Shown piece by piece: positions 147 through 41,855 of a stretch of 64,000 bases of DNA (position 1 is the first letter of the stretch; the number at the start of each line of letters is the position of its first letter). The stretch is from Bacillales bacterium UBA3789 (GTDB lineage: Bacteria > Bacillota_I > Bacilli_A > RF39 > UBA660). The notes under the pieces were generated by a model. It was not told where the DNA came from. It made no database searches and was given only the letters and a program-made list of their open reading frames with translations. The stretch covers positions 30,158 through 94,157 of the forward strand of contig DFEZ01000002.1 of NCBI GenBank assembly GCA_002369415.1, written 5' to 3'. The position numbers were made by a program, and so were the translations under genes.

Positions 147-650
147 TTAGTTATTGTTTGGAGTTGCTACTAATTTAATTGTAAAGTTTTCAGTTTCATC
201 TTGTGTTACAGGTGTTTTCTTAACTGTTACTGTTACTGTTTGAGTAGTTGTTTCTCCAGGTGCTAATGTAGTTGCATCTCTTGAAGTTGTTACTTCGAAA
301 TATTCAGTATTTGCAAATGTTTCAACTGTTGGAGCAGCTAAATCAGCATTAATTCCGTTACTTTCATTAGTTACAGTATAAGTAAATGTAACTGTATCTC
401 CTGCTTTAGTTAAATCAGAAATTGTAAATTGTCCAGTTTGTGCATTATCATGTGATTGTGTTGTAGTAATAGTTGTTGGATTCTTAGTTACAGCAACTTC
501 TCCAGTATAATGTACTTTAAAGTTATCTGGATCAGCAGTAATTGTTCCTGAACCATTAATATTTAATGTTACAGCAGATACTACTGCATAACCAATTCCT
601 AATGCAAGGATAGCTACTAATACGCCTATAATTCCTGTTCTTTTTTTCAT
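147..650 (-). CDS. Secreted Thr-rich protein of unknown function. It has an N-terminal signal/TM segment.
   Basis: ORF of 167 aa. N-terminus MKKRTGIIGVLVAILALGIGYAVVSA, then a Thr/Val-rich beta-like sequence. No recognisable catalytic motif. Confidence 0.5.
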   Translation of the reverse strand: MKKRTGIIGVLVAILALGIGYAVVSAVTLNINGSGTITADPDNFKVHYTGEVAVTKNPTTITTTQSHDNAQTGQFTISDLTKAGDTVTFTYTVTNESNGINADLAAPTVETFANTEYFEVTTSRDATTLAPGETTTQTVTVTVKKTPVTQDETENFTIKLVATPNNN

Positions 651-773: not shown

Positions 774-802
774 AACAAAAAAAGGATTTTGTTAATCCTT
801 TT
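774..802 (-). terminator. Rho-independent terminator after rnc. The hairpin AAAGGATT/AATCCTTT overlaps the rnc stop and is followed by a T-run on the minus strand.
   Basis: Inverted repeat 781-788 / 794-801. A-run 774-780 gives a U-tract in the minus-strand transcript. Confidence 0.5.
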
Positions 803-1457
803 TAGCCATCTTTTCAATTGCTTCTCGTGCAGCTTCTTGTTCTGCTTCTTTTTTGCTTGTTCCTATTCCGGAACCATAAATAATTCCATCAATAATTACA
901 TTTACAGTAAATCTTTTATCATGAGCAGGTCCTTCTTCATTAATTAGAACATATTCAAGACTTTTTTGTTCTGTTTGAACAAATTCTTGAAGGCTACTCT
1001 TATAATCACTGAAGAATGTTATTTTATCATCATTTATGAATGGAACAATCACATCTAATATTACTTTTCTTACTGTTGCATAACCTAAGTCTATATAGAT
1101 TGCTCCCATAAGTGCTTCAAATATATCAGCAACAATTGCTTTCTTTAAATGATCTTTTTCTTCTCCATGACCTACTAATATATATTTTTCTAATCCTAAA
1201 GATGTTGAATATGCATAATTGGCATTTTCACATACATAACTTGCTCTTACCTTAGTCATTTCACCTTCTGTTTCCTTATAATGGTTATATAAATAATCTG
1301 CAACAACTAAGTCTAGTACAGCATCTCCTAAGAATTCTAATCTTTCATAATTTGATTTTACTTTATGTTCATTTGAATATGAACTATGAGAAAAAGCTGC
1401 CTTATATAAATTTATATCTTTAGGTTTAATTTTTAATTTTTTAAATAGTTCTTCCAT
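792..1457 (-). CDS. rnc: Ribonuclease III.
   Basis: RNase III signature ERLEFLGDAVLDLVVADYLY. C-terminal dsRBD-like region (GSGIGTSKKEAEQEAAREAI). 221 aa. Confidence 0.9.
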   Translation of the reverse strand: MEELFKKLKIKPKDINLYKAAFSHSSYSNEHKVKSNYERLEFLGDAVLDLVVADYLYNHYKETEGEMTKVRASYVCENANYAYSTSLGLEKYILVGHGEEKDHLKKAIVADIFEALMGAIYIDLGYATVRKVILDVIVPFINDDKITFFSDYKSSLQEFVQTEQKSLEYVLINEEGPAHDKRFTVNVIIDGIIYGSGIGTSKKEAEQEAAREAIEKMAKKD

Positions 1458-1481
1458 TTAAATCACCTAATTAATTATAAC

Positions 1482-1512
1482 AAAAAAAATATAACTATAA
1501 AAGTTATATTTT
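1482..1512 (-). terminator. Rho-independent terminator downstream of the 720-aa repeat protein gene.
   Basis: Hairpin TATAACT-TTAT-AGTTATA followed by T8 in the minus-strand sense, immediately after the stop at 1512-1514. Confidence 0.5.
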
Positions 1513-3674
1513 TATCTTCTTCTAGGTGTTGCTGTTACTCCAGCCATTTGTTTATATAAAGTACTATCAATATAAACAACTGGATCCATTATTTCATCTT
1601 CTGGTTCTTCATCTGAGAATAATGCTAATTTTCTCAAATCATCAATTGCACCATCGATTTGTTCTTGAGTATATGGATTGTTTCCATTATGGAATTCTTC
1701 AAGTCTTCTATAATATAACTTATCATCTTTTGCTTTCTTAGCTTCTTTCTTAGCTAGATGTTTAACAGCAACTTCTGTATTGTGATTCATGAATTCTGCT
1801 TTCTTTTGTCTATCATCTTCTTTATAGTAAGCTTCTAATTCACTTTGACTTAATGATAACATGAAAGTTACTTTATCATTTAATTCTCTTTCATATCCTT
1901 CTTTATCAGAACCCATATATTTCTTTAATCTATCTTTTTTCCATGCTTCGAACTGACCTAAGTTATTATTATATCTATTCATTAGCAGTCTTACTTTTTG
2001 ACTAATTAGTGAATATTTTTCTCTTTCAGTTCTATCACTACCTATAACATCTAAACAATAGTTTTCAAATTCTACTATTGCATTTTGTCCATATCCACCA
2101 TGTGGTAATCCTCTTAGTTCAGATGTATATTCCTCAACTTTTTTCTTTAAGTCTATACTTCTTCCTGCCATTAATTCAAAATCAATATCAAATTCAGCTT
2201 TTGCAGCTTCTTTTTCTGCTGCACTTAAACTTCTATTATTATCAATTTGTTCATGAGTTGCTTTTAATTCTCTTAATCCTCTTTCATAGTCATTGATATA
2301 TCTATCATATACAGCTTGAATTTGTCTATATATTTCAAGAACAGTTGCTTTTTCCTTTTGAGTTGTAAGAATTTTTTCACATTGAACTTTAAATTCTCTT
2401 ACTTTAGCAGCTCCATATCCTCCTCTTTCAAGTCCTTGAAGAGTTTCAATCATTTCTTTAACTTTTTTCTTTAAATCAACTTTATGCCCACTATCTGCTT
2501 TGAAATCATCTTTTAATCTTTTCTTTCTAGCTGCTTTTTCTTTTTCAGTCATATCTGATTCATCTACTTTAGCAAGTTCTTCTTCTAAAGCTGCTTTTCT
2601 TCTATTATATTCATCTAATAACTTATGATATTCAATTTCTATTTTTGCAAGAATCACCTTGTCTTCTTTGCCAACTGCATGTCCATCTTCATCTATTCTT
2701 CTTGCCAAGGTTTCAAAATCTTCTAGTTTTGGTTTACCATATCCACCAAATTCTAGTTTTTCTAGATTACTTAGCATTTCTTTTATGCTTTCACCTATAT
2801 TAACATTATGTCCATACATATTATTAAAATCTATACGTAATTCTGCAATGTTTTTTTGTTTCTCTTCTTCATCAATAAATGTAGAAGCTTCAATTGTTTG
2901 AATTCTTTTAGCTAGATTATTTGCATCATATAAGTATCTATTTTTATATTGAGTTACTAGTGTACTTATTATTTTTTGTACTATATCAGAATCTGATAAG
3001 TCGTGTTTTTTACCCTCTTCTATTTGAGCTTTTGCTGCTTCCATGAATTCTTTTATCTTTTCATCTCCATATCCGCCATCAGGTAAATTTCTTAATTCAG
3101 CAGCCATTTCTCTTAGTTTTTTATCTAAATCAATTGGGAATCCAAATTCTTGCTCTTTATAATAATCAATCCAATAAGCTATCATTGCGATTACTTCTGC
3201 TTCTGAATCTGAATTTTCTTTAATAGTTCTAATTGTATTATTAAATGCATATAGTTTAGCTTGATAATCTGAAATATATTCTTTAGCAATACTAATTAGT
3301 TCTTCGATAGTTTCTATTCTAGATCTGCCTTGTTCATTACATTCTCTTACTTTGTCTTCTAATCTTTTCTTTATTTCATCAAGTTTGTTTTGTCCATATC
3401 CTAATCTTTCACTTGAAATATATCTTTTTAATTCAGAAATAGCTCTTTCATCTATATCTATCATTAATCTATATAGAATACTTTTATCATATTTTACTTT
3501 TTTTCTATCTAATTCTTTTTCAATAGAATATGCATCCATTAATCCTAATTCACTTAATACATCTAAAATATCATCTATTTCTTTTGTTGCATCTACTTTT
3601 TCTCTTGCAACTTCTGTTCTTTCTGGAACAACAACTGTATTATTTCTTCCTAATAATCTGTCTAATAAACCCAT
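1512..3674 (-). CDS. Large (720 aa) coiled-coil-like protein of unknown function. It contains at least four copies of a ~85-100 aa module ending in L..L..GGYG..K(I/V).EF, plus a fifth degenerate copy (RLGYGQNKLDEIKK).
   Basis: Repeats read directly in the translation:
- IDLDKKLREMAAELRNLPDGGYGDEKIKEF
- NIGESIKEMLSNLEKLEFGGYGKPKLEDF
- VDLKKKVKEMIETLQGLERGGYGAAKVREF
- IDLKKKVEEYTSELRGLPHGGYGQNAIVEF
No TM segment and no known catalytic motif. Confidence 0.6.
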   Translation of the reverse strand: MGLLDRLLGRNNTVVVPERTEVAREKVDATKEIDDILDVLSELGLMDAYSIEKELDRKKVKYDKSILYRLMIDIDERAISELKRYISSERLGYGQNKLDEIKKRLEDKVRECNEQGRSRIETIEELISIAKEYISDYQAKLYAFNNTIRTIKENSDSEAEVIAMIAYWIDYYKEQEFGFPIDLDKKLREMAAELRNLPDGGYGDEKIKEFMEAAKAQIEEGKKHDLSDSDIVQKIISTLVTQYKNRYLYDANNLAKRIQTIEASTFIDEEEKQKNIAELRIDFNNMYGHNVNIGESIKEMLSNLEKLEFGGYGKPKLEDFETLARRIDEDGHAVGKEDKVILAKIEIEYHKLLDEYNRRKAALEEELAKVDESDMTEKEKAARKKRLKDDFKADSGHKVDLKKKVKEMIETLQGLERGGYGAAKVREFKVQCEKILTTQKEKATVLEIYRQIQAVYDRYINDYERGLRELKATHEQIDNNRSLSAAEKEAAKAEFDIDFELMAGRSIDLKKKVEEYTSELRGLPHGGYGQNAIVEFENYCLDVIGSDRTEREKYSLISQKVRLLMNRYNNNLGQFEAWKKDRLKKYMGSDKEGYERELNDKVTFMLSLSQSELEAYYKEDDRQKKAEFMNHNTEVAVKHLAKKEAKKAKDDKLYYRRLEEFHNGNNPYTQEQIDGAIDDLRKLALFSDEEPEDEIMDPVVYIDSTLYKQMAGVTATPRRR

Positions 3675-3792
3675 AATGATAGCCTCCTACTATTCAATTT
3701 TATCATATTAATTTTTAATATTCAATCAGTTTATTTAATAATCTATACTTGTAAAAATAGTCATTTAATAGTAAAATTATTATGGTGATAGG

Positions 3793-4029
3793 ATGAAGAA
3801 ATTACTTATATCTATCATAAAACTATATAAAAAAATTCCTTTTAGTAGTCATAAACAATGTAGATATATTCCTACTTGTTCTAATTATGCTATTGAAAGT
3901 ATTAATACTTATGGATCTATTAAAGGTTCTTTTTTAGCAATTAAAAGAATACTAAGATGTAATCCATGGGGAGGATCTGGTTATGATCCAGTACCATTGA
4001 AGAAGGAGAAGAAACATGAAAAGATTTAA
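3793..4029 (+). CDS. yidD: Membrane protein insertion efficiency factor YidD.
   Basis: YidD motif [15 protein letters not shown]...[14 protein letters not shown]. 78 aa. Confidence 0.8.
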
Positions 4030-4888: not shown

Positions 4889-4916
4889 AAAAAGTATGTT
4901 TTACATACTTTTTTCT
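4887..4916. terminator. Bidirectional Rho-independent terminator between the convergent lipoprotein gene and the 446-aa gene.
   Basis: Hairpin AGTATGT-TTT-ACATACT flanked by an A-run upstream and T-run downstream. It overlaps both stop codons (4886-4888 and 4901-4903). Confidence 0.55.
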
Positions 4917-6241
4917 TTTAATGTTTTTACTAATTGAACTGCTTCTTGTTGCATTTCTTCTGATGTTTCCATATCGATATATCCTCTTGCTCTTTCTTGC
5001 CATTTTTTTGAATGGTTATGATGAGCAACATTTGGATTTAATCTTAATGCAGTTTTATCATCACCACTATGTTTAATAAAGTCTCTTGCATCTAATACGA
5101 AGAATCTATTATCTATAGCAGTTGATGGTGTATCTCTATTGAATTCTCTATCTAATATTACTTTACCGTTTGGATAAATATAGGCAACATATCCTCTATA
5201 TTTTCTTAATCCAATAGCTTTACTCATATATGGAGTTGATTCATAGAATGCAGTTTTTGCATCTCCAAGTTTCTTTAATCTTTCAATTTCTTCAAAAGTC
5301 ATTAAAGTTTCTTTTGGTTCTTTACCTTTATGAACTTTATCATAACCTTTTCCTTCTGGTACAAGGATCCATTCTACTACGCTACTATTATCTTTTGCTC
5401 TTCTTTGTAAGTTTTCAAATCTGGCTTTGATATTTTCTATATCAACTCTCATACCATTGTCTAAAATAATATATACATTTTTATCATAATCAGAATTTAA
5501 ATATTTTTCTATTAATTTGATATATTCTTTAATCATATCTATATCATTAGAGTTTTCACATTTAGCAATATATTCATGTACTACTAACATTGCTAATTTA
5601 TTATTATCAAAGTTATTTCTTATGAATTTATTATAACTTTTACTTTCTAATTTAGCTTTTAATTTAGATCTATCAGTTACATATCTTGTGTACATTTCAG
5701 CTTGAGTAGAAACGAAGTTATCTAATCTTCTTTTTAGTGCACATGAATAGTAATAATGTTCTCCATCGGCATAGGCCTCTTCTGGAATTTTTTCTTGTTT
5801 TTTCATTTTTTCTAATGAAGCAATATAGTTTCTACCATCAAATAAATCTCTATATAATAATGGAAATTCATGTTTTAATTGACTTGTTGTAGTAATACCT
5901 TTTAATAATCTTACTCTTGCTAACATCTTTTTAGTTAGTTCATCATCATCTTTTGTTCTTGAATTATGTTTAATATTTAATATAGTTAATAGTTTATCTA
6001 AGAATTCATCATATGAAGGTTTAATATTTCCAACTACATATGTTCCATCATTAAAACATGATAATCTATCAGTAAAATCATCATTAAACTTTTTATATCT
6101 AAATACTTCGTGAATATTTTCTCTATTTGCTGATCTAAACATCATAAATAAATCTTCAGGTAAGATTCTTGTAGTTCTACACTCTCTAATTAGTGTATTT
6201 AATGAAATATCAACTGTTTTTTCGAATACCCCTGTTTTCAT
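4901..6241 (-). CDS. Monocistronic 446-aa hypothetical protein with a C-terminal Rx6H motif (RLNPNVAHH), a HEPN-like signature. Possible abortive-infection/RNase-type defence or toxin protein.
   Basis: Own strong extended -10 promoter, GAGGGGGA RBS and own terminator. No TM segment. C-terminal ...FFVLDARDFIKHSGDDKTALRLNPNVAHHNHSKKWQERARGYID. No housekeeping family recognised. Confidence 0.55.
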   Translation of the reverse strand: MKTGVFEKTVDISLNTLIRECRTTRILPEDLFMMFRSANRENIHEVFRYKKFNDDFTDRLSCFNDGTYVVGNIKPSYDEFLDKLLTILNIKHNSRTKDDDELTKKMLARVRLLKGITTTSQLKHEFPLLYRDLFDGRNYIASLEKMKKQEKIPEEAYADGEHYYYSCALKRRLDNFVSTQAEMYTRYVTDRSKLKAKLESKSYNKFIRNNFDNNKLAMLVVHEYIAKCENSNDIDMIKEYIKLIEKYLNSDYDKNVYIILDNGMRVDIENIKARFENLQRRAKDNSSVVEWILVPEGKGYDKVHKGKEPKETLMTFEEIERLKKLGDAKTAFYESTPYMSKAIGLRKYRGYVAYIYPNGKVILDREFNRDTPSTAIDNRFFVLDARDFIKHSGDDKTALRLNPNVAHHNHSKKWQERARGYIDMETSEEMQQEAVQLVKTLKEKSM

Positions 6242-11144: not shown

Positions 11145-12293
11145 TTATTCCTCAACATATTGTTTTGCTACCATATAAAAGATTATATTGGCTATTATTT
11201 GTTGTTCTTGTTCTGTTGCTTTTCCATTAGAATGTCCCGTTTGAATAAAGGCATTATTTCCGTACGTAGATAAATATATTTTGTTGGCTGGTATGTCAGA
11301 TTCCATATTTGGACCTGAAAATGTTATCCAAACATCTCCATTAGCAACTTGTCCATATACATGACTTGTAGGAATCCTAAGTTCTTCTCCTTCTTTTTCA
11401 ATATCATATGGGTATTTTGTAAATACTCCACTCTTTTGAATTTTTACTTTATCAGATGATTTATAGTTTCTTACTCCACTATTTAATGTTAAATTTACAA
11501 ATCCAGCTAAAGTATTAAAATTAACATGACTTCCACATCCATTTGCAGTAATTGTATCATGTCCAAATATTGCTGCTCCACCATTCATTAAATATTTACT
11601 CATTTCTTCTGCTGCTTTTGCAGATAAATCTTTACTTGCATAACAGTCCCAAAATCCAAATACTATTTCATCATAATTCCAATTTCCAGATGTTCCAATA
11701 TAAGATTCTGGATTAGCATTAAAGTCTGATAATGCTACTGGTGTAACTTTGATTATTCCCTTTCCGTATGTATCCATCCAAGTTTTTAAATTGTTTCCTG
11801 CTTCTTTTGGATAAACATTTAATACTTTAATCTCTTTTAGTTTATCTTTTATTTCTTCTATATCATATGGTTGTGCTTTACAATACTTATCTATATGTTT
11901 TTCTTTTGAAGGAAATTCATATGTATAGTTATAATTTGTACAACATACTGCGACTGTATAATTATTTTCATCTAATTCAACATCGTTAGATCCTTTAGTT
12001 GTTGTAACATTTACTTTACCTGTACACTCTTCTCCTCTTGATCCTGGATCTTGTAGGGATGATAAAAATCCACTACTAAATAATGTTTCAAAGTCTATTT
12101 CTGTTACGGCAGGATGTTCCATTATATATTCTTCTGCTGCTTGTGATGCAGACTTTGCCATTGTATCATAACCATCTTTTTTAGCTTTCTCTTGATACAC
12201 TGAATATGCTTGTAATCCAAGACCAAATAATATTCCAAGAATTGCTATTACGGCTAATAATTCTACTAAAGAAAATCCTTTATTATTTTTCAT
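11145..12293 (-). CDS. Large (382 aa) type IV pilin-like protein with a class III (prepilin peptidase) signal. Paralog 1.
   Basis: MKNNKG^FSLVELLAVIAILGILFGLG has Gly at -1, Phe at +1 and Glu at +5. Shares ~100 N-terminal residues and a CCTNYNYTY(E/S)FPS motif with the adjacent paralog; the C-terminal half differs. Confidence 0.7.
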   Translation of the reverse strand: MKNNKGFSLVELLAVIAILGILFGLGLQAYSVYQEKAKKDGYDTMAKSASQAAEEYIMEHPAVTEIDFETLFSSGFLSSLQDPGSRGEECTGKVNVTTTKGSNDVELDENNYTVAVCCTNYNYTYEFPSKEKHIDKYCKAQPYDIEEIKDKLKEIKVLNVYPKEAGNNLKTWMDTYGKGIIKVTPVALSDFNANPESYIGTSGNWNYDEIVFGFWDCYASKDLSAKAAEEMSKYLMNGGAAIFGHDTITANGCGSHVNFNTLAGFVNLTLNSGVRNYKSSDKVKIQKSGVFTKYPYDIEKEGEELRIPTSHVYGQVANGDVWITFSGPNMESDIPANKIYLSTYGNNAFIQTGHSNGKATEQEQQIIANIIFYMVAKQYVEE

Positions 12294-12312
12294 ATAATCA
12301 CCAAAACTATTA

Positions 12313-12346
12313 TATCAAAAAAAAGAGTCTTGTTGTAGACTCTTTA
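12313..12346 (-). terminator. Rho-independent terminator after pilin paralog 2, duplicated together with the gene.
   Basis: AAGAGTCT-TGTTGT-AGACTCTT followed by T8 in the minus-strand sense. The distal arm overlaps the stop codon. Confidence 0.55.
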
Positions 12347-13381
12347 ATGAACTGCTCCACTATATGTTTCTGTCATTTGAATGCATGTTCTTTGACATCC
12401 ATCTTCGGCATTTGGAGTTCCAGCATCTGATTTTCTAACTACTCTGTTTTCAAAGTTACCACCATCATGGAACCATGAACCATCTGGTCTAAAATCTGTA
12501 TATGCTGTTGATTTTCCTCTATAAAATTTATATCCATGGAAACTAATTTCAGTTGCTCCATTTTTAAATTGACCTTGCCAACAAACGTGATCTACGTATG
12601 AATTGAAATATGATGGATCATCTGATTCACATGCTGCATGACCATCACTATTTTCTAGGTACTTTATTCTCATAGTATGATGATCTGTTGATACAACTGA
12701 TGATGAACAGAATTTATTTGATGTCTTACTATATGTACAAGCACATACTGCATGGTTATACTTATATCTTCTACATGGAAGATTTGGGTCTCCTCCAGGA
12801 GTATTTGCATCATAGCATCCTCCATATCTACCATTTGAACCTTTAGTACATATTTTATCAATATAGTCCATTGTATATATTCCTTTTTTAACAGTCTTTG
12901 TGTTACCTTCAGCACAGTTTGCACTATTAGTCTCAATTAAATTATCTACATTTGCTTCTGCTTGACATCCATTTTTATTTTGTAATTTATTTCCTGATGG
13001 GAATGAATATGTATAATTATAATTTGTACAACATATTGATACAACATATTCATTTTGATCTAATTCTCTAGCTGCAGTTCCTTCTATTGTACTTACTGTA
13101 ACTGTTCCAGTACAATTATTTCCTTTATCACCAGGGTCTGCTATTGATGATAAGTATCCAGAATTATATAAAGTATCAAAATTCATACTTGATGCTGCTG
13201 GATGATCCATCTTATATTCTTCCATTGCTTCTGTTGCAGATTTTGCCATTGTATCATAGCCTTGTTTTTTTGCTTTTTCTTTATATGTTGAATAAGCCTG
13301 AATACCCAATCCAAATAATATTCCTAATATTGCTATTACGGCAAGTAATTCAACTAATGAAAATCCTTTGTTATTTTTCAT
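12344..13381 (-). CDS. Large (345 aa) type IV pilin-like protein, paralog 2, with a Cys-rich (~20 Cys) divergent C-terminal domain.
   Basis: Same class III signal as paralog 1 (MKNNKGFSLVELLAVIAILGILFGLGIQAYSTYKEKAKKQGYDTMAKSA). The conserved ~300 nt of 5' coding sequence and the RBS (GGTGATTATATG) are near-identical at the DNA level to paralog 1. Confidence 0.7.
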   Translation of the reverse strand: MKNNKGFSLVELLAVIAILGILFGLGIQAYSTYKEKAKKQGYDTMAKSATEAMEEYKMDHPAASSMNFDTLYNSGYLSSIADPGDKGNNCTGTVTVSTIEGTAARELDQNEYVVSICCTNYNYTYSFPSGNKLQNKNGCQAEANVDNLIETNSANCAEGNTKTVKKGIYTMDYIDKICTKGSNGRYGGCYDANTPGGDPNLPCRRYKYNHAVCACTYSKTSNKFCSSSVVSTDHHTMRIKYLENSDGHAACESDDPSYFNSYVDHVCWQGQFKNGATEISFHGYKFYRGKSTAYTDFRPDGSWFHDGGNFENRVVRKSDAGTPNAEDGCQRTCIQMTETYSGAVH

Positions 13382-15236: not shown

Positions 15237-17459
15237 TTATCTACTATGTGAGATATTGTCAATATTTTCTTTTGTAATTGCTACTCTATATTTATTAAGT
15301 TCATCTATTAAGATATCTCTTCTTACATATAGACCTTTAGTTAATTCTATACCTTTGAACACTCCTCTATTTCCAGTATATTGTTGTTCTAATTCTTCAT
15401 AACTATCGAAAGATGTGTCTTTATATTCTTTACCGTAACGTAGAGCTCCTTCACTTCTACAAGTTGCCATTATATTATTAATAACATCATAGAAGTTTAA
15501 GTATTCACCTTCATCATTAACGAATGCGAAGTTAGAATCTTCTCCATATTGTTCTTCAATACCATGAGCTAAGATTCCTACATATTCACTTAAGTTAACG
15601 TAGTATCCACTTTCTATATTACTTTCACTATTTTCAATTACTTTTTTACCTGCTAGATTAATATCTTCATGTTCATATCCGTAAATATTAATTCTACCAG
15701 TTCTTGGTTCTCTAATAACAGCTAAACCATTCATTTGATTAATTAAATCAGTATTAATATATGTAATCTTAATTCCTGACATATAATTTGATTTATCATC
15801 TAAATATGACATTTCATCTAGATCTATATCATCATCATTATCTGGTCCATTAGGATTATCTGGATTATTTGGACCGCCTGGATTTCCACCACCTAAATTA
15901 TTAAAGTTGAAATCTCTATTATTATCTTTGTCATCATCATTTTGATTATTATCATCAGTGTTGTTATCAACTGGATTATTATCATTAGTTGTATCAAATG
16001 GTTTATCATTATTATTTATATTCATTTGTTCTAGATTTAATTCAATTACTCTTGCCATAGTTTGTGCAAAGTAATCAACTATTCTTTCGTCTTGTTCATC
16101 TAATAATAATCTAATATCTTCTTCAGATAGGAATGGATTTACTCCTTCGAATCTAGGAATTGAAATGGTATCTCCATTTCTTAATTTGACTGCTAATAAA
16201 CGATAGTACTCTTCAAGAGTAATTCCTCTTTCATTAATATATCTCATTAGTAATCTAATATATGCTTCACGAACAGCATTTTCTAACTCTTCGTCTTCTT
16301 TTTCAGGTTTCTTTTCTTCCATTTGTTCTAGATTTAATTCAATTACTCTAGTCATGGCATTTGCGAAATATTCAACGATTCTATCTTCATCAGAATCAAG
16401 TAATCTATTAATATCATCTTGTGTTAGGAATGGATTCTTTCTTTCGAATTCAGGTACTCTTGATAAGTCTCCACTTAGTAAGCTTTCTCCTAACATTGTA
16501 AAATAATCATTTAATGTCATACCATTATCTTTAATATATTCCATTAAAGCATTAACATAAGATTGTCTTGCTGATAAGTTTTCTTCTTCAACTAAGTTAT
16601 CTTGTTCTTCTTGCTTTCTAATCTTTTCTTTTAAATGGTTTAGATATTCTAATACATCTTCTCTTGTTAATGAGTCAGTGAAGTCATCTTCTCCTCTAGC
16701 TAATAAATAAACGAAATCTCTTGGTTCTACCTCTGATATAATTTGATCTATGGCAGCTTCTGTTATTTCAGCTGGTAAGAATATATAACATCTTGATCCT
16801 TCTAACATTAATGTAGTTAAACCATTATCTGCAGCTTCAACTGATCTTTGTACTGGCCCAACATCAGTAACTATATTAACTCCAAAAGAGTCTTGTGCAA
16901 CAAAGTGAATTCTATCTGAATGGTGATTAGTAGTTCCATCAAAGATATCTTCTACTTTTACACCATCTTGGTCGATCATGACAATTCCTCTATTGAATCT
17001 ATAAACAACTCCATCTAATGAGAATAACCAGCCGATTCTATCACTTCTATTTTGATCATCTTGAGCATTAATTTCATCTAAGGTTACTGGAGCAACCCTT
17101 GCTGGTCCAGCTGATAAATATTCAGGGGAGTTAATTTCATATGTATATACTGGTCCATCTGGTGTTTGATCAACTTTAACTAGTTTTGGTCCATCAATAT
17201 TAACTTTCTCAACAGTTGCAGGTCCTTCTTTTTCTTCTGGTGCTGCAGCTTCTAATACACTTTTCTTGTAATCAATTTGTTCTGATTGATATTTTTTAAG
17301 ATCTTCAAGTGTATTAAATACTGGAGTTTTATGGAATAATACTTTATCAGTATCATCTATTTCTACAGCAGTAAAATATCCTGATTTCATCATATTTTCT
17401 TTTAATTCTTTAGAATCCTCATATATTTCATCATAGTTTTCAAAATCGTTATATGGCAT
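15237..17459 (-). CDS. Large (740 aa) soluble protein of unknown function.
- It has an internal tandem duplication of a ~90-aa module.
- It also has an N/D/P/G-rich low-complexity segment.
   Basis: Repeat A: ...YVNALMEYIKDNGMTLNDYFTMLGESLLSGDLSRVPEFERKNPFLTQDDINRLLDSDEDRIVEYFANAMTRVIELNLEQM. Repeat B: ...YIRLLMRYINERGITLEEYYRLLAVKLRNGDTISIPRFEGVNPFLSEEDIRLLLDEQDERIVDYFAQTMARVIELNLEQM. The DNA repeat has a ~300-bp period (about 16022 and 16322). Low-complexity stretch DNNPVDNNTDDNNQNDDDKDNNRDFNFNNLGGGNPGGPNNPDNPNGPDNDDD. Confidence 0.6.
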   Translation of the reverse strand: MPYNDFENYDEIYEDSKELKENMMKSGYFTAVEIDDTDKVLFHKTPVFNTLEDLKKYQSEQIDYKKSVLEAAAPEEKEGPATVEKVNIDGPKLVKVDQTPDGPVYTYEINSPEYLSAGPARVAPVTLDEINAQDDQNRSDRIGWLFSLDGVVYRFNRGIVMIDQDGVKVEDIFDGTTNHHSDRIHFVAQDSFGVNIVTDVGPVQRSVEAADNGLTTLMLEGSRCYIFLPAEITEAAIDQIISEVEPRDFVYLLARGEDDFTDSLTREDVLEYLNHLKEKIRKQEEQDNLVEEENLSARQSYVNALMEYIKDNGMTLNDYFTMLGESLLSGDLSRVPEFERKNPFLTQDDINRLLDSDEDRIVEYFANAMTRVIELNLEQMEEKKPEKEDEELENAVREAYIRLLMRYINERGITLEEYYRLLAVKLRNGDTISIPRFEGVNPFLSEEDIRLLLDEQDERIVDYFAQTMARVIELNLEQMNINNNDKPFDTTNDNNPVDNNTDDNNQNDDDKDNNRDFNFNNLGGGNPGGPNNPDNPNGPDNDDDIDLDEMSYLDDKSNYMSGIKITYINTDLINQMNGLAVIREPRTGRINIYGYEHEDINLAGKKVIENSESNIESGYYVNLSEYVGILAHGIEEQYGEDSNFAFVNDEGEYLNFYDVINNIMATCRSEGALRYGKEYKDTSFDSYEELEQQYTGNRGVFKGIELTKGLYVRRDILIDELNKYRVAITKENIDNISHSR

Positions 17460-30514: not shown

Positions 30515-30546
30515 AAAAAACTAAGCTTTTTAAAGCTTAGTTTAAA
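30515..30546. terminator. Terminator at the 3' end of the NAD operon. It overlaps the nadK stop.
   Basis: CTAAGCTTT-TTA-AAGCTTAG palindrome flanked by A/T runs. Confidence 0.5.
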
Positions 30547-31331
30547 AACTTATCATTAATTTTTCTTATAAAGCTATAATTATCTTTTCTAATAAGCTTT
30601 ATTTTTTTATCTTTTATAACTGTATTTATTTCTAATACGTTATCAAATATATAGTTAGTTCCATCTACCATAATTAATATACTATCATCTTTATATGGTT
30701 TAATAGTCACTTTATTATTTGCTGGTAAAATTACTGAATTTGTTAGGCTTCTAGTTACCTTATTATTTTGAGGAGCAATTGGTGTTATTTGTAATGTATC
30801 AAATGTATTATAAACAATACTTCCTCCTAAATTTAAATTATAAGCAGTTGAACCAAAAGATGTAGATACTAAAATACCATCACCTTTAAACTCTTCAAGC
30901 AATTCATCTCCAACATAAATATCTAAATTAATAGTCTTTAGAGAATCATCTCTTATTAGTATTTCATTAATTGATTTTAAATTAAATCTTTCTTCTTTAG
31001 TTACTACTTCTATTTCTTGAATACTTATTTCTTCATATTTAAAGTTTTCATTATTTAAACAATCTATAAATTCATCTATTTCATCAATACTGATATCTTG
31101 AGCAAATCCTAAAGTACCTGAATTTATTCCTACATAATAAACATTACTATCAAAGTCTGTATCAGTAGTCATTCTTAGGAATGTTCCATCTCCTCCAACG
31201 GCTATTCCTAAATCGAAATTATCTTCTACTATTTCGATATTTCTCTTAGATAAAGACTCTTTTAATATGTTTACTACTTCATTTGTTTTTTCTGTATCAT
31301 TTACAAATAATTTAACCTTATTTATTCTCAT
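30537..31331 (-). CDS. nadK: NAD kinase.
   Basis: GGDGTFLRM motif and NE/D-rich C-terminal domain. 264 aa. Confidence 0.85.
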   Translation of the reverse strand: MRINKVKLFVNDTEKTNEVVNILKESLSKRNIEIVEDNFDLGIAVGGDGTFLRMTTDTDFDSNVYYVGINSGTLGFAQDISIDEIDEFIDCLNNENFKYEEISIQEIEVVTKEERFNLKSINEILIRDDSLKTINLDIYVGDELLEEFKGDGILVSTSFGSTAYNLNLGGSIVYNTFDTLQITPIAPQNNKVTRSLTNSVILPANNKVTIKPYKDDSILIMVDGTNYIFDNVLEINTVIKDKKIKLIRKDNYSFIRKINDKFLN

Positions 31332-32158
31332 TTCTTATACCTAAACAAGTATGATGGACGATGTCCTTCTCCTGTTTTCATCCTTTCTGTTTTCTCTACT
31401 TTATTAGAAATCATTCTTCTAAAGGCAGGATCTAATAATTTTTTATTTAATATTACTTCATATACTTGTTGCAACTCACCTAAAGTGAAATAATTTGGCA
31501 TCATGTTAAATACTATATCAGTGTAACTAATTTTATTTCTTATTCTTTCTAATCCAGTTAATATTACTATATCATGATCAAATGCAAGAGATTCATTTTC
31601 TATACTTTGATAATTAAATCTAGTAGTTGTTTTTTCTTTTAATTCTTTCTTCAGCTTTAATGTTACTTTATCATTACCGTTATCTAAAACTATTTTTACA
31701 TTATTATTCCATTCTTTATATTCAACTACATCAAACCATGAAGTGCTTTCTTTTAATTCACTTTTTAATCTATTTTTATCAACTAAAGCAATAAAGGCAG
31801 TTGATACTACTCTCATTCTTGGATCTCTTTTTATAGAATCAAATGTATATAATTGTTCTAAATAGATATCATCTAGATTTGTTTCATCTTTTAATACTCT
31901 TTTTGCACAATCTTCTAGTGTTTCTTTCTTAGGATTCATAAATCCTCCTGGAAGAGACCATTTATCTTTAAATGGATAATTATCTCTTTTAGCAAGTAAA
32001 ATACTCATATGTTTTTTATCAGTTTTACGATAATTATCAGTATCTACTGATGAAACACTTAATATTAATAAATCTGCTGTCATCGATAGTCTTTCAAAAT
32101 CATTTGGATTATAAGCTTCTAAGAATTCTTTTTCTGATTTAAATTCCATATACTTCAC
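31328..32158 (-). CDS. nrtR: Nudix-domain protein, probably the NrtR-type Nudix-related transcriptional regulator of NAD metabolism.
   Basis: Nudix box PGGFMNPKKETLEDCAKRVLKDETNL. The C-terminal ~80 aa (…FTLGELQQVYEVILNKKLLDPAFRRMISNKV…) resembles the NrtR winged-helix domain. Embedded in a pncA-pncB-nadE-nadD-X-nadK operon with 1-4 nt gene overlaps. Confidence 0.6.
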   Translation of the reverse strand: MKYMEFKSEKEFLEAYNPNDFERLSMTADLLILSVSSVDTDNYRKTDKKHMSILLAKRDNYPFKDKWSLPGGFMNPKKETLEDCAKRVLKDETNLDDIYLEQLYTFDSIKRDPRMRVVSTAFIALVDKNRLKSELKESTSWFDVVEYKEWNNNVKIVLDNGNDKVTLKLKKELKEKTTTRFNYQSIENESLAFDHDIVILTGLERIRNKISYTDIVFNMMPNYFTLGELQQVYEVILNKKLLDPAFRRMISNKVEKTERMKTGEGHRPSYLFRYKK

Positions 32159-32704
32159 CTATTCTTCACTATATAATTTATTCTTAATTATATAGTCTTT
32201 TACCTTTTCATCTAAATTATTATAATTACCTTTTCTAATATCTGAAGAGCAAACAGTTATATTTTTAAAGTTATCAATATATATAAAGTCTTTTTCATAT
32301 TCTTGAAGATATTTATTTCTTTCAACTTTATCTCTTCTTAATACTATTACTTTAAACTTTAGTATTGTATTTATATTGTCCCACATGTGGAATTTTTCAA
32401 TATTATCTGAACCAATAATTAGATATAATTCATCATTAGGATACTCTTTTTCTAAACTTAGTAATATTTGATATGTGTACTTATAATGATTATTTTTATC
32501 ATCTATTATTATTTTGTCATTTTCATAAAATTTTAACATTTCAACCCTTTTATTAACATCTAATAAATTATTTTTATGCCAATAGTTTGGCGTTGGTAGC
32601 ATAATCACTTTATCTACATAGTCATTATCTAATAAATAATTAACTACTTTGATATGTCCTTTATGTACTGGATTAAAACTACCTACATATACACCTAATC
32701 TCAT
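32159..32704 (-). CDS. nadD: Nicotinate-nucleotide adenylyltransferase.
   Basis: MRLGVYVGSFNPVHKGH (HxGH nucleotidyltransferase motif). 181 aa. Confidence 0.85.
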   Translation of the reverse strand: MRLGVYVGSFNPVHKGHIKVVNYLLDNDYVDKVIMLPTPNYWHKNNLLDVNKRVEMLKFYENDKIIIDDKNNHYKYTYQILLSLEKEYPNDELYLIIGSDNIEKFHMWDNINTILKFKVIVLRRDKVERNKYLQEYEKDFIYIDNFKNITVCSSDIRKGNYNNLDEKVKDYIIKNKLYSEE

Positions 32705-33450
32705 TTTCTATATGTTGGAATGTTAAATTTATGATGGGCATTTTTATGTAATTTTTCTATTCTTTGTTTTATTTCTTCTTCTAATGGTTCATTATTTATG
32801 TACTTTTCTATATCACTATATTTTACTCCTAATTTGTCTTCATCTGTTTGATTACTTAATCCATCATTTGGTACTTTATATAGTACTTTTTCAGGAACTT
32901 GTAATTCTTCTCCTAATTGGATTACTTCTGATACTGTTAGATCTGATATTACTTTTATATCTGAAACTGAGTCTCCACCTTTTGTGAAGTATCCAACAAA
33001 CTCCTCACATTTATTACCAGTACCTGCGACTATATAAGTCTTTCCTTCTATTGCACTTTCTAAAGCAGCCATATAATAAAGACTCATCATTCTCATTCTT
33101 GGTTTTATATTAATATCACTATTTAATAATTGTTGATCATTAAAGTTACCAATTAACTTAATTTGATCTTTAAATGAATCAAATGAATTTGTTAAATCTA
33201 TATTTACTAGTCTAAATCCATAGAAGTCTGCTACTAGTTTGGCATCTTCTTTGTCTTCTTCATTTGAATGACATGGAAGAGTTACTCCTAAAACATTTTC
33301 TTTTCCTAAGGCTTTAGTAAATAATCCAGCTACTACACCTGAGTCTTTTCCTCCACTGATACCTATTACTACTCCACCTAAGTTGTTTTCTTGATAATAG
33401 TTTCTTATAAAATCTACTATTTTATCTACTTGTTCTTTTCTATTAAACAT
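32701..33450 (-). CDS. nadE: NH3-dependent NAD+ synthetase.
   Basis: PP-loop GISGGKDSGVVAGL. 249 aa. Confidence 0.9.
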   Translation of the reverse strand: MFNRKEQVDKIVDFIRNYYQENNLGGVVIGISGGKDSGVVAGLFTKALGKENVLGVTLPCHSNEEDKEDAKLVADFYGFRLVNIDLTNSFDSFKDQIKLIGNFNDQQLLNSDINIKPRMRMMSLYYMAALESAIEGKTYIVAGTGNKCEEFVGYFTKGGDSVSDIKVISDLTVSEVIQLGEELQVPEKVLYKVPNDGLSNQTDEDKLGVKYSDIEKYINNEPLEEEIKQRIEKLHKNAHHKFNIPTYRK

Positions 33451-33451
33451 A

Positions 33452-34888
33452 TTATTCTCCTTTTACGTTGTTTCTATGTTCATTAATTAGATTATTTTTT
33501 AATTCTCTTAATTTATCACTTAAATCTACATAGTATTCATGTGGCATAGTAAGACGAGTTACTTCTTCATATAAAGTATTAACTTCATTAGTACAATAGT
33601 CTTGTCTTTCTTTTAGAGTTGGTAAATTATAAATTAATATACCATTCTTATAAATTGGAACTAATAGTTCTCTCTTTATATAGTTATCTATATGTTTAGT
33701 TTTCCATGTTTCCTGTGGATGTACTAATGTATATTCTATATCTGATACTTCTTCATCATATAGTGTTATTACATCTCCTAAGGCATAATTAGTTTCTTTA
33801 TCATAGAATCTATATACCTTTTTATATCCTGGATTAGTTGTTTTAATAGTATCATTACTTACTTTTAATTTTGGTATTATTTGATTATCTTTTTCAACAG
33901 CTGCTAGTTTATAAACTCCTCCAACTCTTTCTTTTGAAGCTGCTATATTATCTCCTGCTCCTATTGAGTCTATTACTGCTCCTTGTTCTAGTAAACTATT
34001 AATTGTATGTTCATTTAATCCGTTACTTAAACATATTGTAGCTTCATTGTATCCAGCTTTATCAAGCATTTTTCTTGCTTCTTTTGATAAGTAAGCTAAG
34101 TCTCCTGAATCTATTCTGATTCCTTTAAATTTATAACCATTTGGTTTTAAATATTCATTAGCTACTTTAATTGCATTAGGAATACCGCTTCTTAATGTAT
34201 CGAATGTATCTACTAAGAATACACAATTATTAGGATTAGATTTTGCATATCCTAAGAAAGCATCATATTCACTATCTGCTTCAGTTACTAATGAATGAGC
34301 CATTGTACCTAAAACTGGTATATTATATTTCATTCCTGCATAAGTATTACTTGTTCCACAGCATCCTCCAATATAGGCATTTTTACTTGCTTCTATTGCA
34401 GAATCTATTCCTCTAGCACGTCTTGCTCCAAATTCCATTACTGGGATTTTGCCTGCTTCTTTTGTTATTCTTTTGGCTGCAGTTGCTACTAAACTACCAT
34501 GATTGAAATTAGCAAGTAATGCAGTTTCTAGTAATTGAGCTGTTATAATATCAGCTTTTACTGTTAATACTGGTTCATTTGGGAATACTACTGTTCCATC
34601 CGGTACTGAGTAGATATCTCCTTTAAATGTTAATCCTTTTAAATAATCTAAGAATTCATCTGAAAAAGAATTTAGACTTCTTAAATAATTTATTTCTTGA
34701 TCATTAAATTTAAAATTATTTATATAATTAATTGTTTCTTCTAATCCACAGGCTACTAAATATCCTCCATTAAATGGATTCTCTCTAAAGAAAATATCAA
34801 AATATACAATTTCATCTTTTTTATTTTCATTAAAATAAGTTTGAGCCATTGTTAATTCATAAAAATCTGTCATTAAAGTCTTATTCAT
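33452..34888 (-). CDS. pncB: Nicotinate phosphoribosyltransferase.
   Basis: 478 aa. MTDFYELTMAQTYF N-terminus typical of PncB. …GTMAHS… motif. Confidence 0.9.
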   Translation of the reverse strand: MNKTLMTDFYELTMAQTYFNENKKDEIVYFDIFFRENPFNGGYLVACGLEETINYINNFKFNDQEINYLRSLNSFSDEFLDYLKGLTFKGDIYSVPDGTVVFPNEPVLTVKADIITAQLLETALLANFNHGSLVATAAKRITKEAGKIPVMEFGARRARGIDSAIEASKNAYIGGCCGTSNTYAGMKYNIPVLGTMAHSLVTEADSEYDAFLGYAKSNPNNCVFLVDTFDTLRSGIPNAIKVANEYLKPNGYKFKGIRIDSGDLAYLSKEARKMLDKAGYNEATICLSNGLNEHTINSLLEQGAVIDSIGAGDNIAASKERVGGVYKLAAVEKDNQIIPKLKVSNDTIKTTNPGYKKVYRFYDKETNYALGDVITLYDEEVSDIEYTLVHPQETWKTKHIDNYIKRELLVPIYKNGILIYNLPTLKERQDYCTNEVNTLYEEVTRLTMPHEYYVDLSDKLRELKNNLINEHRNNVKGE

Positions 34889-34889
34889 A

Positions 34890-35486
34890 TTATTCTCCTT
34901 TTTTTACTATATTTATTCCTTGTTGTTTCATTAAAAGTATTGCGGCATCTACATATTCTTTTCTTTCATCTTCTGAATATGTTGCAATAGCATCTTCATG
35001 AACATTAATTATATGTTTTCTATTTTGTTGGTCTAAATAATTAGCTAAGCCAATTGATCCATTAACTACACATATATCTGTACAGCAACCTACAATATCA
35101 AATTCTGTTAATTCTAGTTGTGATTCTATTAATTTTCTAAACTCAGGAGATTCCATAAAACTTGTGGAATTCTTTCTAATACTTATTGTATCTTCATTGT
35201 TTTCAAATTCTTTTAATTCATCAACTAATTCACTTTCAGGAGTGTTTTCTAGACAGTGACTAGTGTTTACAAATCTTTCAAATTCAACTGATTCTTCAGT
35301 ATGAGTATCTTTAATAAATACTATTAATTTTCCTTTAGTTTTAGCTTCTTTAATCAATTCAATTTGTCTTGGAATAATGTCTTTAATTTTTTCATCATGA
35401 AGAACTCCTTCCGTAACAAATCCATTTACCATATCTACTACAATTAAACATTCTTTATACTTTTTTAAGTTACCGATAGTTTCCAT
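34890..35486 (-). CDS. pncA: Nicotinamidase / isochorismatase-family hydrolase.
   Basis: LIVVDMVNGF (Asp), catalytic Cys in GCCTDICV, Lys region. First gene of the NAD salvage operon. 198 aa. Confidence 0.75.
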   Translation of the reverse strand: METIGNLKKYKECLIVVDMVNGFVTEGVLHDEKIKDIIPRQIELIKEAKTKGKLIVFIKDTHTEESVEFERFVNTSHCLENTPESELVDELKEFENNEDTISIRKNSTSFMESPEFRKLIESQLELTEFDIVGCCTDICVVNGSIGLANYLDQQNRKHIINVHEDAIATYSEDERKEYVDAAILLMKQQGINIVKKGE

Positions 35487-39914: not shown

Positions 39915-39948
39915 CAAATGAAAAAGGTACCTATTGATACCTTTTTAT
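39915..39948 (-). terminator. Rho-independent terminator after the 636-aa pilin-like gene.
   Basis: AAAAGGTA-CCTATTGA-TACCTTTT plus a T-run (minus-strand sense). Overlaps the stop codon. Confidence 0.45.
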
Positions 39949-41855
39949 CCTCCCATTACATTAGGTTTATATGTTATCATTACAAAGCCATCACCAGAAC
40001 TCAATATTTCTCCTGTTAATTGATTGCTTTCTAATGATGATAATGTAGATGAGTGATTGTATAGTTCAGAGTTATTTTCAATACGGAAAGAAGATCCGTC
40101 ATAATTTAAATCTTGTAAAACAGTATGAACAGCTTCTCCATCATCACTTTGCATACAATTGTAGCAATATAATGCTGAATCCCATATTTTTATTCTGTTT
40201 GTTCCATTATATAAGTAACTTGAACCTCCACCAGATCCAGTGTTTTCACTACCTGAGGCAAATCCTGCTCCGAATCCTGCTCCTGCTCCTGGAACTGGGA
40301 ATTCTGAAGTATAATATCTTGTTGGTACTTCGGCAAAAAGTGGTTGATAATAATCAAAAATGTTTCCACCATAACCACAACCAGGGAACCTCCAATTTGT
40401 AGGCCACCATTCATTTAGTTCTGTTGACCAAACTCCTTCTTTTTGACCACTTTCACCAGTGACTCCACCGGCACTTCCACCTTTTCCTTTTATAACTCCA
40501 TTAGAATAATATGATCCTCCGCCTCCACCGGCAATAATCATAAAATGATCCCAATATTCATCATTTTGTATTACTCTTTCAAGATCTTTAAGTGTACTTG
40601 TGGAAACTATAGTTGCTCCTCCTCCGGAACCAACTGTACCAGTTGTTAAATTTCTTTGTATAGCTGGACCTCCACCGATTTTTCCGCCTTCTATTTGAGC
40701 ATCATCGGTAGTAGCCATTTTTCCTGCGCCACCAACATTTACATATAAAATAGTTCCCTTTTGAGCTGATACTAAAGCTTCAGCATATCCTCCATAACCC
40801 ATTTCAGTTGGGCTATCGGACATTGCTCCTCCAGCAGCTCCCCAAACTTGTATTAAATAATATCCTGTTGTAGGAACTTCAAAATATTGATTGTATCCTG
40901 GAATATATGTAAATCTTGTTTTGGCAGGTTCCCAAACTGCATATAACGTAGTGTCTCTATTAAATCTTTGATATGAATCAACACTATAATCTATATTTGT
41001 TTCTCCTTCTCCACGAACTGTCCAACCCACAAGTGAACATCCATCTTTATGAATACCATTTTCAGATGTTGCATTTGGTAGTCTTACATTTTCACCAGAG
41101 TTTACTGTAACTGGGTTAACTGTACCAGTTGCTCCTTCACCTAATTCAAATCTAACTGTATATGTATCTACTTCAGGTGGTAAGATATCAAGACCTGAAG
41201 ACATATCTGATAATTTTGATGTAAAATCCATTGGTGCAACTATATTTATACCATATCTTGTGGATAATTCTGGATGATAGAATCCAATATAGATTGATAA
41301 AACATTGTCATCTGTTATTTCAATTAAAATATTATTTATTGATAAGTCTTTTTGTTCATGACATTCTTCTGTTTTTGTTTTACATGAAACAGGTTTACCG
41401 GCATCATTTATTTTTACATAAGAACTTCCTAAATCAGGTAATTCGTAATCAGTAATTTCTCTATCAGGATTTCCATATTGAATTTTAAATTCATCATCAA
41501 GTGTTGGATTTCCATCAGGGTGTGATGCTGACTGTGTGAATCTTTGTGAAACTATTAAACGTCTTCTAGTTCCATCTGATAAGTTACAATCAACTTGGTG
41601 AGTAACTTTTTTAGTTGTACTATCAACAGTTCTTTTATAAGTAGCATGAGTTAGACCAATTGTTATAAAGTCATCTTGAATATCTTTAGTTAAAATATTT
41701 TTATAACTATAAATTCTTGTTTTATAATTCTCAGCCATTCTTTTATCATTGTAAGCAGAAATTGTTGAGAATAAAGACATTGCTATTACAACAACAAGTA
41801 CAAAACATACTAATACTTCTATTATTGTAATTCCTTTATTATTAAGTTTTTTCAT
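39945..41855 (-). CDS. Giant (636 aa) type IV pseudopilin-like protein. It carries a Listeria-Bacteroides (Flg_new) repeat and a C-terminal ALK/LTK-type glycine-rich domain.
   Basis: Class III signal MKKLNNKG^ITIIEVLVCFVLVVVIAMSLF, with Glu at +5. Middle part YTVRFELGEGATGTVNPVTVNSGENVRLPNATSENGIHKDGCSLVGWTVRG…TTLYAVWEP has the Flg_new pattern. C-terminal part FTYIPGYNQYFEVPTTGYYLIQVWGAAGGAMSDSPTEMGYGGYAEALVSAQKGTILYVNVGGAGK…GGGGGSYYSNG…GKGGSAGGVTG matches the Gly_rich (PF12810-like) pattern. The start codon overlaps the stop of the upstream pseudopilin gene. Confidence 0.7.
   Translation of the reverse strand: MKKLNNKGITIIEVLVCFVLVVVIAMSLFSTISAYNDKRMAENYKTRIYSYKNILTKDIQDDFITIGLTHATYKRTVDSTTKKVTHQVDCNLSDGTRRRLIVSQRFTQSASHPDGNPTLDDEFKIQYGNPDREITDYELPDLGSSYVKINDAGKPVSCKTKTEECHEQKDLSINNILIEITDDNVLSIYIGFYHPELSTRYGINIVAPMDFTSKLSDMSSGLDILPPEVDTYTVRFELGEGATGTVNPVTVNSGENVRLPNATSENGIHKDGCSLVGWTVRGEGETNIDYSVDSYQRFNRDTTLYAVWEPAKTRFTYIPGYNQYFEVPTTGYYLIQVWGAAGGAMSDSPTEMGYGGYAEALVSAQKGTILYVNVGGAGKMATTDDAQIEGGKIGGGPAIQRNLTTGTVGSGGGATIVSTSTLKDLERVIQNDEYWDHFMIIAGGGGGSYYSNGVIKGKGGSAGGVTGESGQKEGVWSTELNEWWPTNWRFPGCGYGGNIFDYYQPLFAEVPTRYYTSEFPVPGAGAGFGAGFASGSENTGSGGGSSYLYNGTNRIKIWDSALYCYNCMQSDDGEAVHTVLQDLNYDGSSFRIENNSELYNHSSTLSSLESNQLTGEILSSGDGFVMITYKPNVMGG

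Follow-up and report, generated by a model that had tools for sequence, protein, structure and literature searches.

We analysed 64,000 nucleotides of Bacillales bacterium UBA3789 (assembly GCA_002369415.1, contig DFEZ01000002.1, forward-strand positions 30,158 to 94,157), a stretch that we call the window, and focused on a gene on its minus strand that encodes a protein of 720 amino acids (aa) with a recurring GGYG motif. An earlier sequence-only reading had placed this open reading frame (ORF) at 1512-3674, and both its extent and its length are confirmed, on the (-) strand. The GGYG gene is real and under purifying selection, its overall ratio of nonsynonymous to synonymous substitution rates (dN/dS, Nei-Gojobori) being 0.15, 0.29 and 0.34 in three comparisons, and the full-length orthologues of its product are 34-99% identical to it. 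The gene, its expression signals and the segments of the encoded protein are as follows.

1512..3674 (-): GGYG helical-repeat protein gene, complete ORF of 720 aa with an ATG start
3697..3725 (-): promoter-like site TTGAAT-17-TAAAAT with an upstream TG, a consensus match only
3683..3688 (-): Shine-Dalgarno sequence AGGAGG, 8 nt 5' of the ATG, read from the sequence
3639..3674 (-), aa 1-12: conserved N-terminal amphipathic peptide MGLLDRLLGRNN, a proposed membrane or partner anchor
3591..3638 (-), aa 13-28: linker, poorly conserved and mostly predicted to be disordered
3465..3590 (-), aa 29-70: helical head KEIDDILD.L.ELG..., YDKSILYRLMIDIDE, among the most conserved segments
3249..3464 (-), aa 71-142: module 1, a degenerate partial copy, with LGYG at aa 91-94 (nt 3393-3404)
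2922..3248 (-), aa 143-251: module 2, the best conserved module, with GGYG at aa 200-203 (nt 3066-3077)
2592..2921 (-), aa 252-361: module 3, with GGYG at aa 310-313 (nt 2736-2747)
2271..2591 (-), aa 362-468: module 4, with GGYG at aa 418-421 (nt 2412-2423)
1947..2270 (-), aa 469-576: module 5, with GGYG at aa 526-529 (nt 2088-2099) and the highest entropy of the four full modules
1617..1946 (-), aa 577-686: C-terminal helical domain with MLSLS..EL..YY.EDD, HN..VAVK.LAKKEA and NPYT
1587..1616 (-), aa 687-696: acidic variable linker SDEEPEDE, with an entropy of 1.79 bits and a dip in model confidence to ~62
1539..1586 (-), aa 697-712: C-terminal peptide with YIDSTLYKQ, near-invariant in the long-form family and a proposed interaction motif

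The promoter-like site at 3697..3725 is weak, because such sites are no commoner here than in shuffled sequence.

The repeat unit and its predicted structure

The tetrapeptide GGYG occurs four times in the protein (aa 200, 310, 418 and 526) and the variant LGYG once (aa 91), bearing out the four clear motif copies and one degenerate copy that the sequence-only reading had listed. Successive motif anchors lie 109, 110, 108 and 108 aa apart; the proposed count of five modules stands, with the repeats supported, whereas the proposed period of ~90 aa has to give way to the measured 108-110 aa. Nor do the modules end in the motif, as had been thought: it falls mid-module, at the turn between the second and third helices (B and C), and the phase of the repeat is arbitrary. 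The stretch (I/V)DLKKKV.E, described as a part of the module, is present in modules 4 and 5 only, module 2 having IDLDKKLRE and module 3 VNIGESIKE.

Statistical support for the repeats was obtained from pairwise Smith-Waterman alignments, in which modules 2-5 score 9-20 standard deviations above 300 composition-preserving shuffles, with none of the shuffles (0/300) reaching the observed score. Pairwise matches of module 1 to the other modules are weak (z 1.8-6.2). A module hidden Markov model (HMM) built from modules 2-5 alone of 11 orthologues nevertheless recovers module 1, both in the window protein (aa 71-139, HMM positions 39-107, E 4e-5) and in most of the orthologues, as a partial copy equivalent to the last two thirds of the repeat unit. 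The same HMM finds no further copies of the module in the six reading frames of the 64-kb window. All five GYG cores, including G92, Y93 and G94 of module 1, are invariant across 11 orthologues down to 34% identity. At the DNA level, self-matches between modules span only 15-40 nt around the GGYG codons, spaced 324 or 648 nt apart, and because matches survive only there, the duplications are old and have been kept at the protein level.

AlphaFold2 was used to model the full-length protein from an 11-sequence alignment and, separately, aa 226-482 (modules 3-4). The full-length model is entirely alpha-helical, with a mean predicted local distance difference test score (pLDDT) of 87.3 and a predicted template modelling score (pTM) of 0.51, which agrees with the helical character ascribed to the protein from its sequence. 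The shorter model (pLDDT 88.5, pTM 0.69) is likewise all-helical and reproduces the four-helix pattern per module. In these models each module comprises helix A of ~18 aa, B of ~13, C of ~20 and D of ~35, which in module 3 occupy residues 269-286, 293-305, 314-333 and 338-372. The element 'F....G(H)' is predicted to lie in the A-B loop, 'L..L' to close helix B and 'I..F' to open helix C, with GGYG in the connection between B and C, which is 8 residues long and contains a 3-10 turn. Across modules, conservation is seen at G37, L53, L56, G59, G60, Y61, G62, I66 and F69, plus E20, and because the residues conserved in this way are glycines and hydrophobics, the motif reads as a structural corner or core signature and not as a ligand site. 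The GGYG motif is thus the structural corner of a new ~108-aa four-helix repeat, whose signature F..x.G(H)x(I/V)(D/N)L...(I/V)..(M)...L..L..GGYG...I.EF could enter domain databases.

With a net charge of -21 and an isoelectric point (pI) of 5.35, the protein is typical of its family, which has a pI of ~5.2 and is acidic in nearly all its members; all modules of the 720-aa protein are acidic except module 4. It contains no transmembrane (TM) segment, the maximum 19-residue Kyte-Doolittle mean being 0.83 and the grand average of hydropathy -0.83. The GGYG protein is soluble, acidic, all-alpha and cytoplasmic.

A different view of the motif would make the loops ligand sites repeated five times, either contacting nucleic-acid backbones in the manner of helix-hairpin-helix (HhH) elements (G-Phi-G) or acting as a glycine-rich nucleotide loop. 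The HhH consensus is h..h.GhG...A..h, which L..L..GGYG...I..F superficially resembles, and the Tyr of GGYG is nearly invariant. Given the make-up of the conserved positions, we regard ligand-binding loops as hardly credible. Among specific candidates, HhH was rejected on several counts: Pfam scans returned no HhH family, hhalign against the (HhH)2 region of UvrC encoded in the window gave a probability of 0.07%, and in place of a tight basic hairpin the G-Y-G lies in the 8-residue connection with its 3-10 turn, in modules that are acidic with the exception of module 4. A P-loop or Rossmann-type site was likewise rejected, as the models lack strands and GGYGxxK fits neither GxxxxGK[ST] nor GxGxxG. 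The nucleotide-binding repeat put forward in the sequence-only reading has accordingly been dropped, there being no beta-strand in the models and no conserved Walker-type Lys-Ser/Thr in a family that is acidic.

Both ends of the protein carry conserved elements of their own. The N-terminal motif M-G-[LI]-[FL]-D-[RK]-[LIF]-[FL]-x-x-[KN] is found in 42 of 70 family sequences, the distant short subfamily included; the peptide is amphipathic (hydrophobic moment, muH, 0.60) and unstructured in the model, where pLDDT is 37-38 at aa 1-20, below 50 over aa 1-23 and 68 at aa 21-30. The column entropy of the following linker (aa 13-28), 1.62 bits, is among the highest of the segments, and the head is modelled with short helices at 30-41, 48-57 and 64-69. 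Amphipathic membrane-targeting peptides at the N- or C-terminus are known from SepF, MinD and FtsA, and helix alpha0 of PspA/Vipp1 begins MGIFSR/MGLFDR. The N-terminus of the GGYG protein resembles such peptides in its short Phi-Phi-x-x-Phi-Phi pattern, followed by basic residues and a flexible linker, but is just ~8-10 residues long, and we propose membrane binding from this sequence pattern. Membership of the PspA/IM30/Vipp1 family was rejected, as there is no Pfam or NCBIfam match and the likeness is confined to the first ~8 residues.

In the C-terminal domain (aa 577-686), modelled with helices at 591-607, 610-648, 651-662 and 670-684, 22% of the columns are invariant. The pattern [YFWI][ILV][DEN]xT[LI]xxQ of the C-terminal peptide occurs in 38 family sequences, including all 10 orthologues from a word search (see below) and every representative of >500 aa that the profile matches as far as the C-terminal end, and YIDSTLxxQ is near-invariant although family-wide identity falls to 26%. 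Judged by column entropy along the whole protein, the least variable segments are the head, module 2, the C-terminal domain and the C-terminal peptide, and the most variable are the linkers and modules 4-5; the middle modules and the linkers evolve fastest.

Family status and distribution

The whole protein gave nothing significant in Pfam-A, NCBIfam, PADLOC (0 families) or PHROGs, and when 36 non-redundant modules were scanned singly against Pfam at E <= 10, no family matched more than 3 of them. Sequence searches of the PDB, with the protein alone, its full-length profile or the module profile as query, returned only de novo designed helical bundles (best E 5.5e-4), matches that we attribute to the E/K/L-rich helical composition. 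Designed helical repeat proteins and bundles such as DHR10 (5CWG), Fiber-n6-Zn1 (9K80) and 2L4HC2_23 are among the closest known systems, but they are artificial and bear no evolutionary relation to the GGYG protein; alignments to them cover only 60-97 residues, the longer ones with a high root-mean-square deviation. Structure comparison of the models produced no specific fold match, and a literature search for a GGYG repeat motif retrieved only unrelated papers. The earlier suggestion of an undescribed repeat family is therefore supported, by the lack of matches in Pfam, NCBIfam, PADLOC and PHROGs and of any natural relative in the PDB. Among known repeat classes, TPR, Sel1, HEAT and Armadillo were rejected, with no Pfam matches and a unit of 108 aa and four helices here against 34-47 aa and two or three helices there. 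Known anti-phage and phage families were rejected as well (PADLOC 0 families; best PHROG match E 0.006, to a family of unknown function).

Ten relatives, all of 712-733 aa, unnamed and without Pfam domains, came from a word-indexed search of 5.8 billion proteins, and when 1.84 billion cluster representatives were searched exhaustively with a HMMER profile, the yield was only 60 proteins at E <= 1e-3, 29 of them at E <= 1e-30. Among the 185,579 species representatives of GTDB, the gene is present in two metagenome-assembled genomes, labelled 'uncultured Bacillales' and 'uncultured Bacilli', and all recovered GGYG loci have a GC content of 23-30%. The family comes from animal gut and rumen metagenomes and is limited to a narrow clade of uncultured low-GC Bacilli, which places the GGYG module phylogenetically in a single narrow low-GC Bacilli lineage.

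Within the family the number of modules varies from 2 to 5. Forms of ~520 aa (P0019, P0020, P0025) arose by the in-register loss of about two middle modules, and a distant short subfamily (P0051, P0056, P0057, P0060, P0062, P0068) has kept the N-terminal peptide, with its core motif relaxed to (L/V/A)GY(G/Y)..K(I/L).EF. Two further arrangements were observed. One contig (L014) carries two adjoining ORFs with GGYG-type modules (2368-3309 and 3252-4988), which are probably the halves of a single gene broken by a frameshift or an assembly error, the alternative being a tandem pair. One family protein of 475 aa (P0054) has an N-terminus that looks FHA-like by eye and an acidic linker, followed by two modules near-identical to part of another member (P0024), and is a genuine domain fusion or else the product of a chimeric contig.

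Genomic neighbourhood and evolutionary rate

The neighbours of the GGYG gene and the other features of the window that we single out are listed below.

792..1457 (-): rnc (RNase III), 54 nt downstream of the GGYG gene, Pfam E 2e-32
1501..1474 (-): promoter-like site TTTATA-16-TATAAT in the 54-nt gap before rnc, 10/12 matches, with TG before the -10 hexamer
147..650 (-): gene downstream of rnc for a small protein whose N-terminal segment is hydrophobic and which matches DUF7507 weakly
4901..6241 (-): 446-aa ORF without a Pfam match, between znuA and rpsT
11145..13381 (-) and 42770..44827 (+): two proteins with a prepilin N-methylation motif, and a type II/IV secretion ATPase (T2SSE)
15237..17459 (-): 740-aa ORF without a Pfam match
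30537..35486 (-): compact NAD salvage and regulation cluster
39945..41855 (-): 636-aa protein with an ALK/LTK glycine-rich domain (PF12810, E 1.8e-28) and a Listeria-Bacteroides repeat

In every long-form locus examined the gene order is ZnuA(-)/YidD(-), GGYG gene(+), rnc(+). The gap between the GGYG gene and rnc measures 45-106 nt in seven long-form loci, L004 has one inserted gene, and rnj follows at a distance of a few genes in L001, L004, L008 (by position), L011 and L018. Across these loci, identity to the window proteins is 74-91% for RNase III, 66-93% for ZnuA and 26-72% for the GGYG protein. With neighbours that are 66-93% identical, the carrier genomes are closely related, and the shared order with rnc is therefore inherited. 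The link to rnc at which the sequence-only reading had hinted thus holds as a conserved same-strand adjacency, but as a functional connection it is weak.

Such a connection would take the form of an RNA-processing scaffold that tethers RNase III, and perhaps RNase J, like the non-catalytic part of RNase E or the complexes of RNase Y, the gene order reflecting co-expression with rnc. That rnc lies 3' of the gene and on its strand at all the long-form loci examined, often with rnj further downstream, is in keeping with this idea, as is the scan of the intergenic gap, which found no terminator-like site between the GGYG gene and rnc. However, among genomes this close the shared order is expected without functional coupling, the divergent ZnuA/YidD genes are equally syntenic, and the gap holds a good promoter-like site for rnc itself (10/12, TG). 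The protein is moreover acidic (net -21) with no RNA-binding domain in the Pfam scan, its gene evolves 3-10 times faster than rnc, and the short subfamily adjoins no RNase at the loci examined. We therefore consider an RNase scaffold distinctly unlikely.

The dN/dS values of the neighbours, calculated in the same way as for the GGYG gene, are 0.015-0.096 (~0.10) for rnc and 0.07-0.09 for znuA, so that the GGYG gene evolves 3-10 times faster than either. This difference could point to a protein driven by genetic conflict, part or target of an unrecognised anti-phage or anti-competitor system whose repeat surfaces are diversifying; it is down to 26% identity where rnc retains 77%, its dN/dS is 3-10 times that of its neighbours, and module number differs between close relatives. 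Yet overall dN/dS is well under 1, and in all lineages examined the gene holds a fixed core-genome position between housekeeping genes, with no mobile-element neighbours, no PADLOC match, no significant PHROG match and no enzymatic effector domain. Helical rods under low constraint often evolve fast in any case, two EzrA structures sharing 20% identity (PMC4243239), and we judge a role in conflict very unlikely.

In the distant short subfamily the surroundings differ. Two members, P0051 (in L010, region 2929-5463) and P0062 (in L016, region 6873-8618), are encoded 42-60 nt 3' of an FtsW/RodA/SpoVE gene, and L016 also has MraY upstream; two metagenome contig scans (alignment A5; P0051) returned no more loci for this FtsW-adjacent subfamily. 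Upstream of the FtsW/RodA/SpoVE gene, there is a gene for a ~635-aa protein without a Pfam match, with a CVGF...GH...D pattern that looks transglutaminase-like by eye.

Some side observations concern the immediate neighbours of the long-form gene. In L001 (10215-10730) rnc is called at only 171 aa, without the double-stranded RNA-binding domain, against 221 aa in the otherwise similar L002, which is likely to reflect a frameshift or assembly error. In the L001 region 10857-13885, genes for a signal peptidase (Peptidase_S26) and for a DUF5305 protein come after the equivalent of the 147..650 gene. The 446-aa ORF at 4901..6241 looks like a strain-specific insertion, because L001 and L002 have no gene at that place.

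Elsewhere in the window, the two prepilin-motif proteins and the T2SSE ATPase point to a system for a type IV pilus or competence pilus. The 740-aa ORF contains an internal ~95-aa duplication, ...YVNALMEYIKDNGMTLNDYFTMLGESLL...RIVEYFANAMTRVIELNLEQM... occurring twice, followed by an N/D/G/P-rich low-complexity stretch, and is unrelated to the GGYG module. The NAD cluster comprises NAD kinase, an NrtR-type Nudix regulator, NAD synthase and NAPRTase, together with a cytidylyltransferase-like protein and an isochorismatase-family protein, which from their context are NadD-like and nicotinamidase-like, respectively. The 64-kb window contains no rRNA (16S or other).

A proposed structural rod or scaffold

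Rather than being an enzyme or binding nucleotides, the GGYG protein is probably a structural rod or scaffold. Terminal peptides joined by linkers, a conserved head and tail, variable middle modules, acidity and the lack of a catalytic signature together suggest an adaptor or scaffold design, and the scaffold role already considered in the sequence-only reading stays plausible and is the one we prefer, with the qualification that it derives from anatomy alone. More specifically, we put a probability of roughly 40% on a membrane- or partner-tethered structural rod or scaffold, probably related to the envelope or to division. The protein would act as an elongated rod or scaffold in which the N-terminal amphipathic peptide, MG-Phi-Phi-D-R/K-Phi-Phi, with its linker would dock it on a membrane or partner, the C-terminal domain and the YIDSTLxxQ peptide may bind another partner, and the GGYG modules would serve as a spacer of adjustable length.

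The closest architectural parallel is EzrA, which consists of a membrane anchor, five repeats of ~100 aa forming antiparallel triple-helical bundles, and, at the C-terminus, a helical domain that bears a conserved patch (PMC4243239). Compared with the EzrA structures (PDB 4UXV/4UY3), the GGYG protein is alike in overall plan, with a proposed N-terminal attachment, five tandem helical repeats, here of ~108 aa and with four predicted helices each, and a C-terminal helical domain followed by a short conserved motif, and both proteins are cytoplasmic, helical and fast-evolving in sequence. EzrA is a septation ring formation regulator, and the paralogous short subfamily adjoins ftsW/rodA. The two differ at their ends: EzrA has an N-terminal TM anchor whereas the GGYG protein has a short amphipathic peptide (maximum 19-residue Kyte-Doolittle mean 0.83), and EzrA, which binds and regulates FtsZ, localises to mid-cell via a C-terminal QNR patch, whereas the conserved C-terminal motif of the GGYG protein is YIDSTLxxQ. 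The EzrA family model matched neither the whole protein nor any of the 36 modules (Pfam, E <= 10), and NCBIfam gave nothing relevant. As both the family match and the TM anchor are lacking, the likeness is one of architecture and not of homology. By this analogy, the organisation of the cell envelope or of division would be the most likely specific function. A second parallel is the eukaryotic spectrin repeat (~106 aa, three helices), to which the 108-aa GGYG module is similar in length, in its tandem head-to-tail arrangement and in being all-alpha.

Two observations lend further weight to a tethered rod or scaffold with an envelope or division role, namely a dN/dS above that of rnc and znuA, which fits a low-constraint helical structural protein, and the position of the distant subfamily, whose gene adjoins the 3' end of an FtsW/RodA/SpoVE gene and is close to MraY. 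Several points weigh against it. The FtsW adjacency amounts to one observation, made at two orthologous loci, and concerns the paralogous subfamily and not the GGYG gene; membrane binding and partners are drawn from anatomy only; and the amphipathic stretch is only ~8 residues long. In addition, the module has four helices against three in the spectrin repeat, the full-length pTM is only 0.51, the helix packing and rod shape being putative, and the fast evolution would equally fit a protein in genetic conflict.

A bolder version of the tethered rod, which we hold to be unlikely, is that the clade independently invented a spectrin/EzrA-like membrane-tethered molecular ruler, with its length set by 2-5 modules and its invariant terminal peptides (MGLFDR-like at the N-terminus, YIDSTLxxQ at the C-terminus) linking the membrane with a partner in division or cell-wall synthesis, for example the FtsW/RodA machinery. 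If true, this would constitute a new bacterial cytoskeletal-scaffold family, without detectable homology to known ones.

The GGYG protein represents a new family but a familiar kind of protein, helical tandem-repeat rods being well known, and with a well-supported orphan family of very narrow distribution the immediate impact is modest. Should the structural rod or scaffold proposed here prove correct, the family would represent a second, independently evolved bacterial spectrin-like rod, and its natural module-number variants would provide a ready-made test of whether scaffold length matters for the organisation of the envelope or of division.

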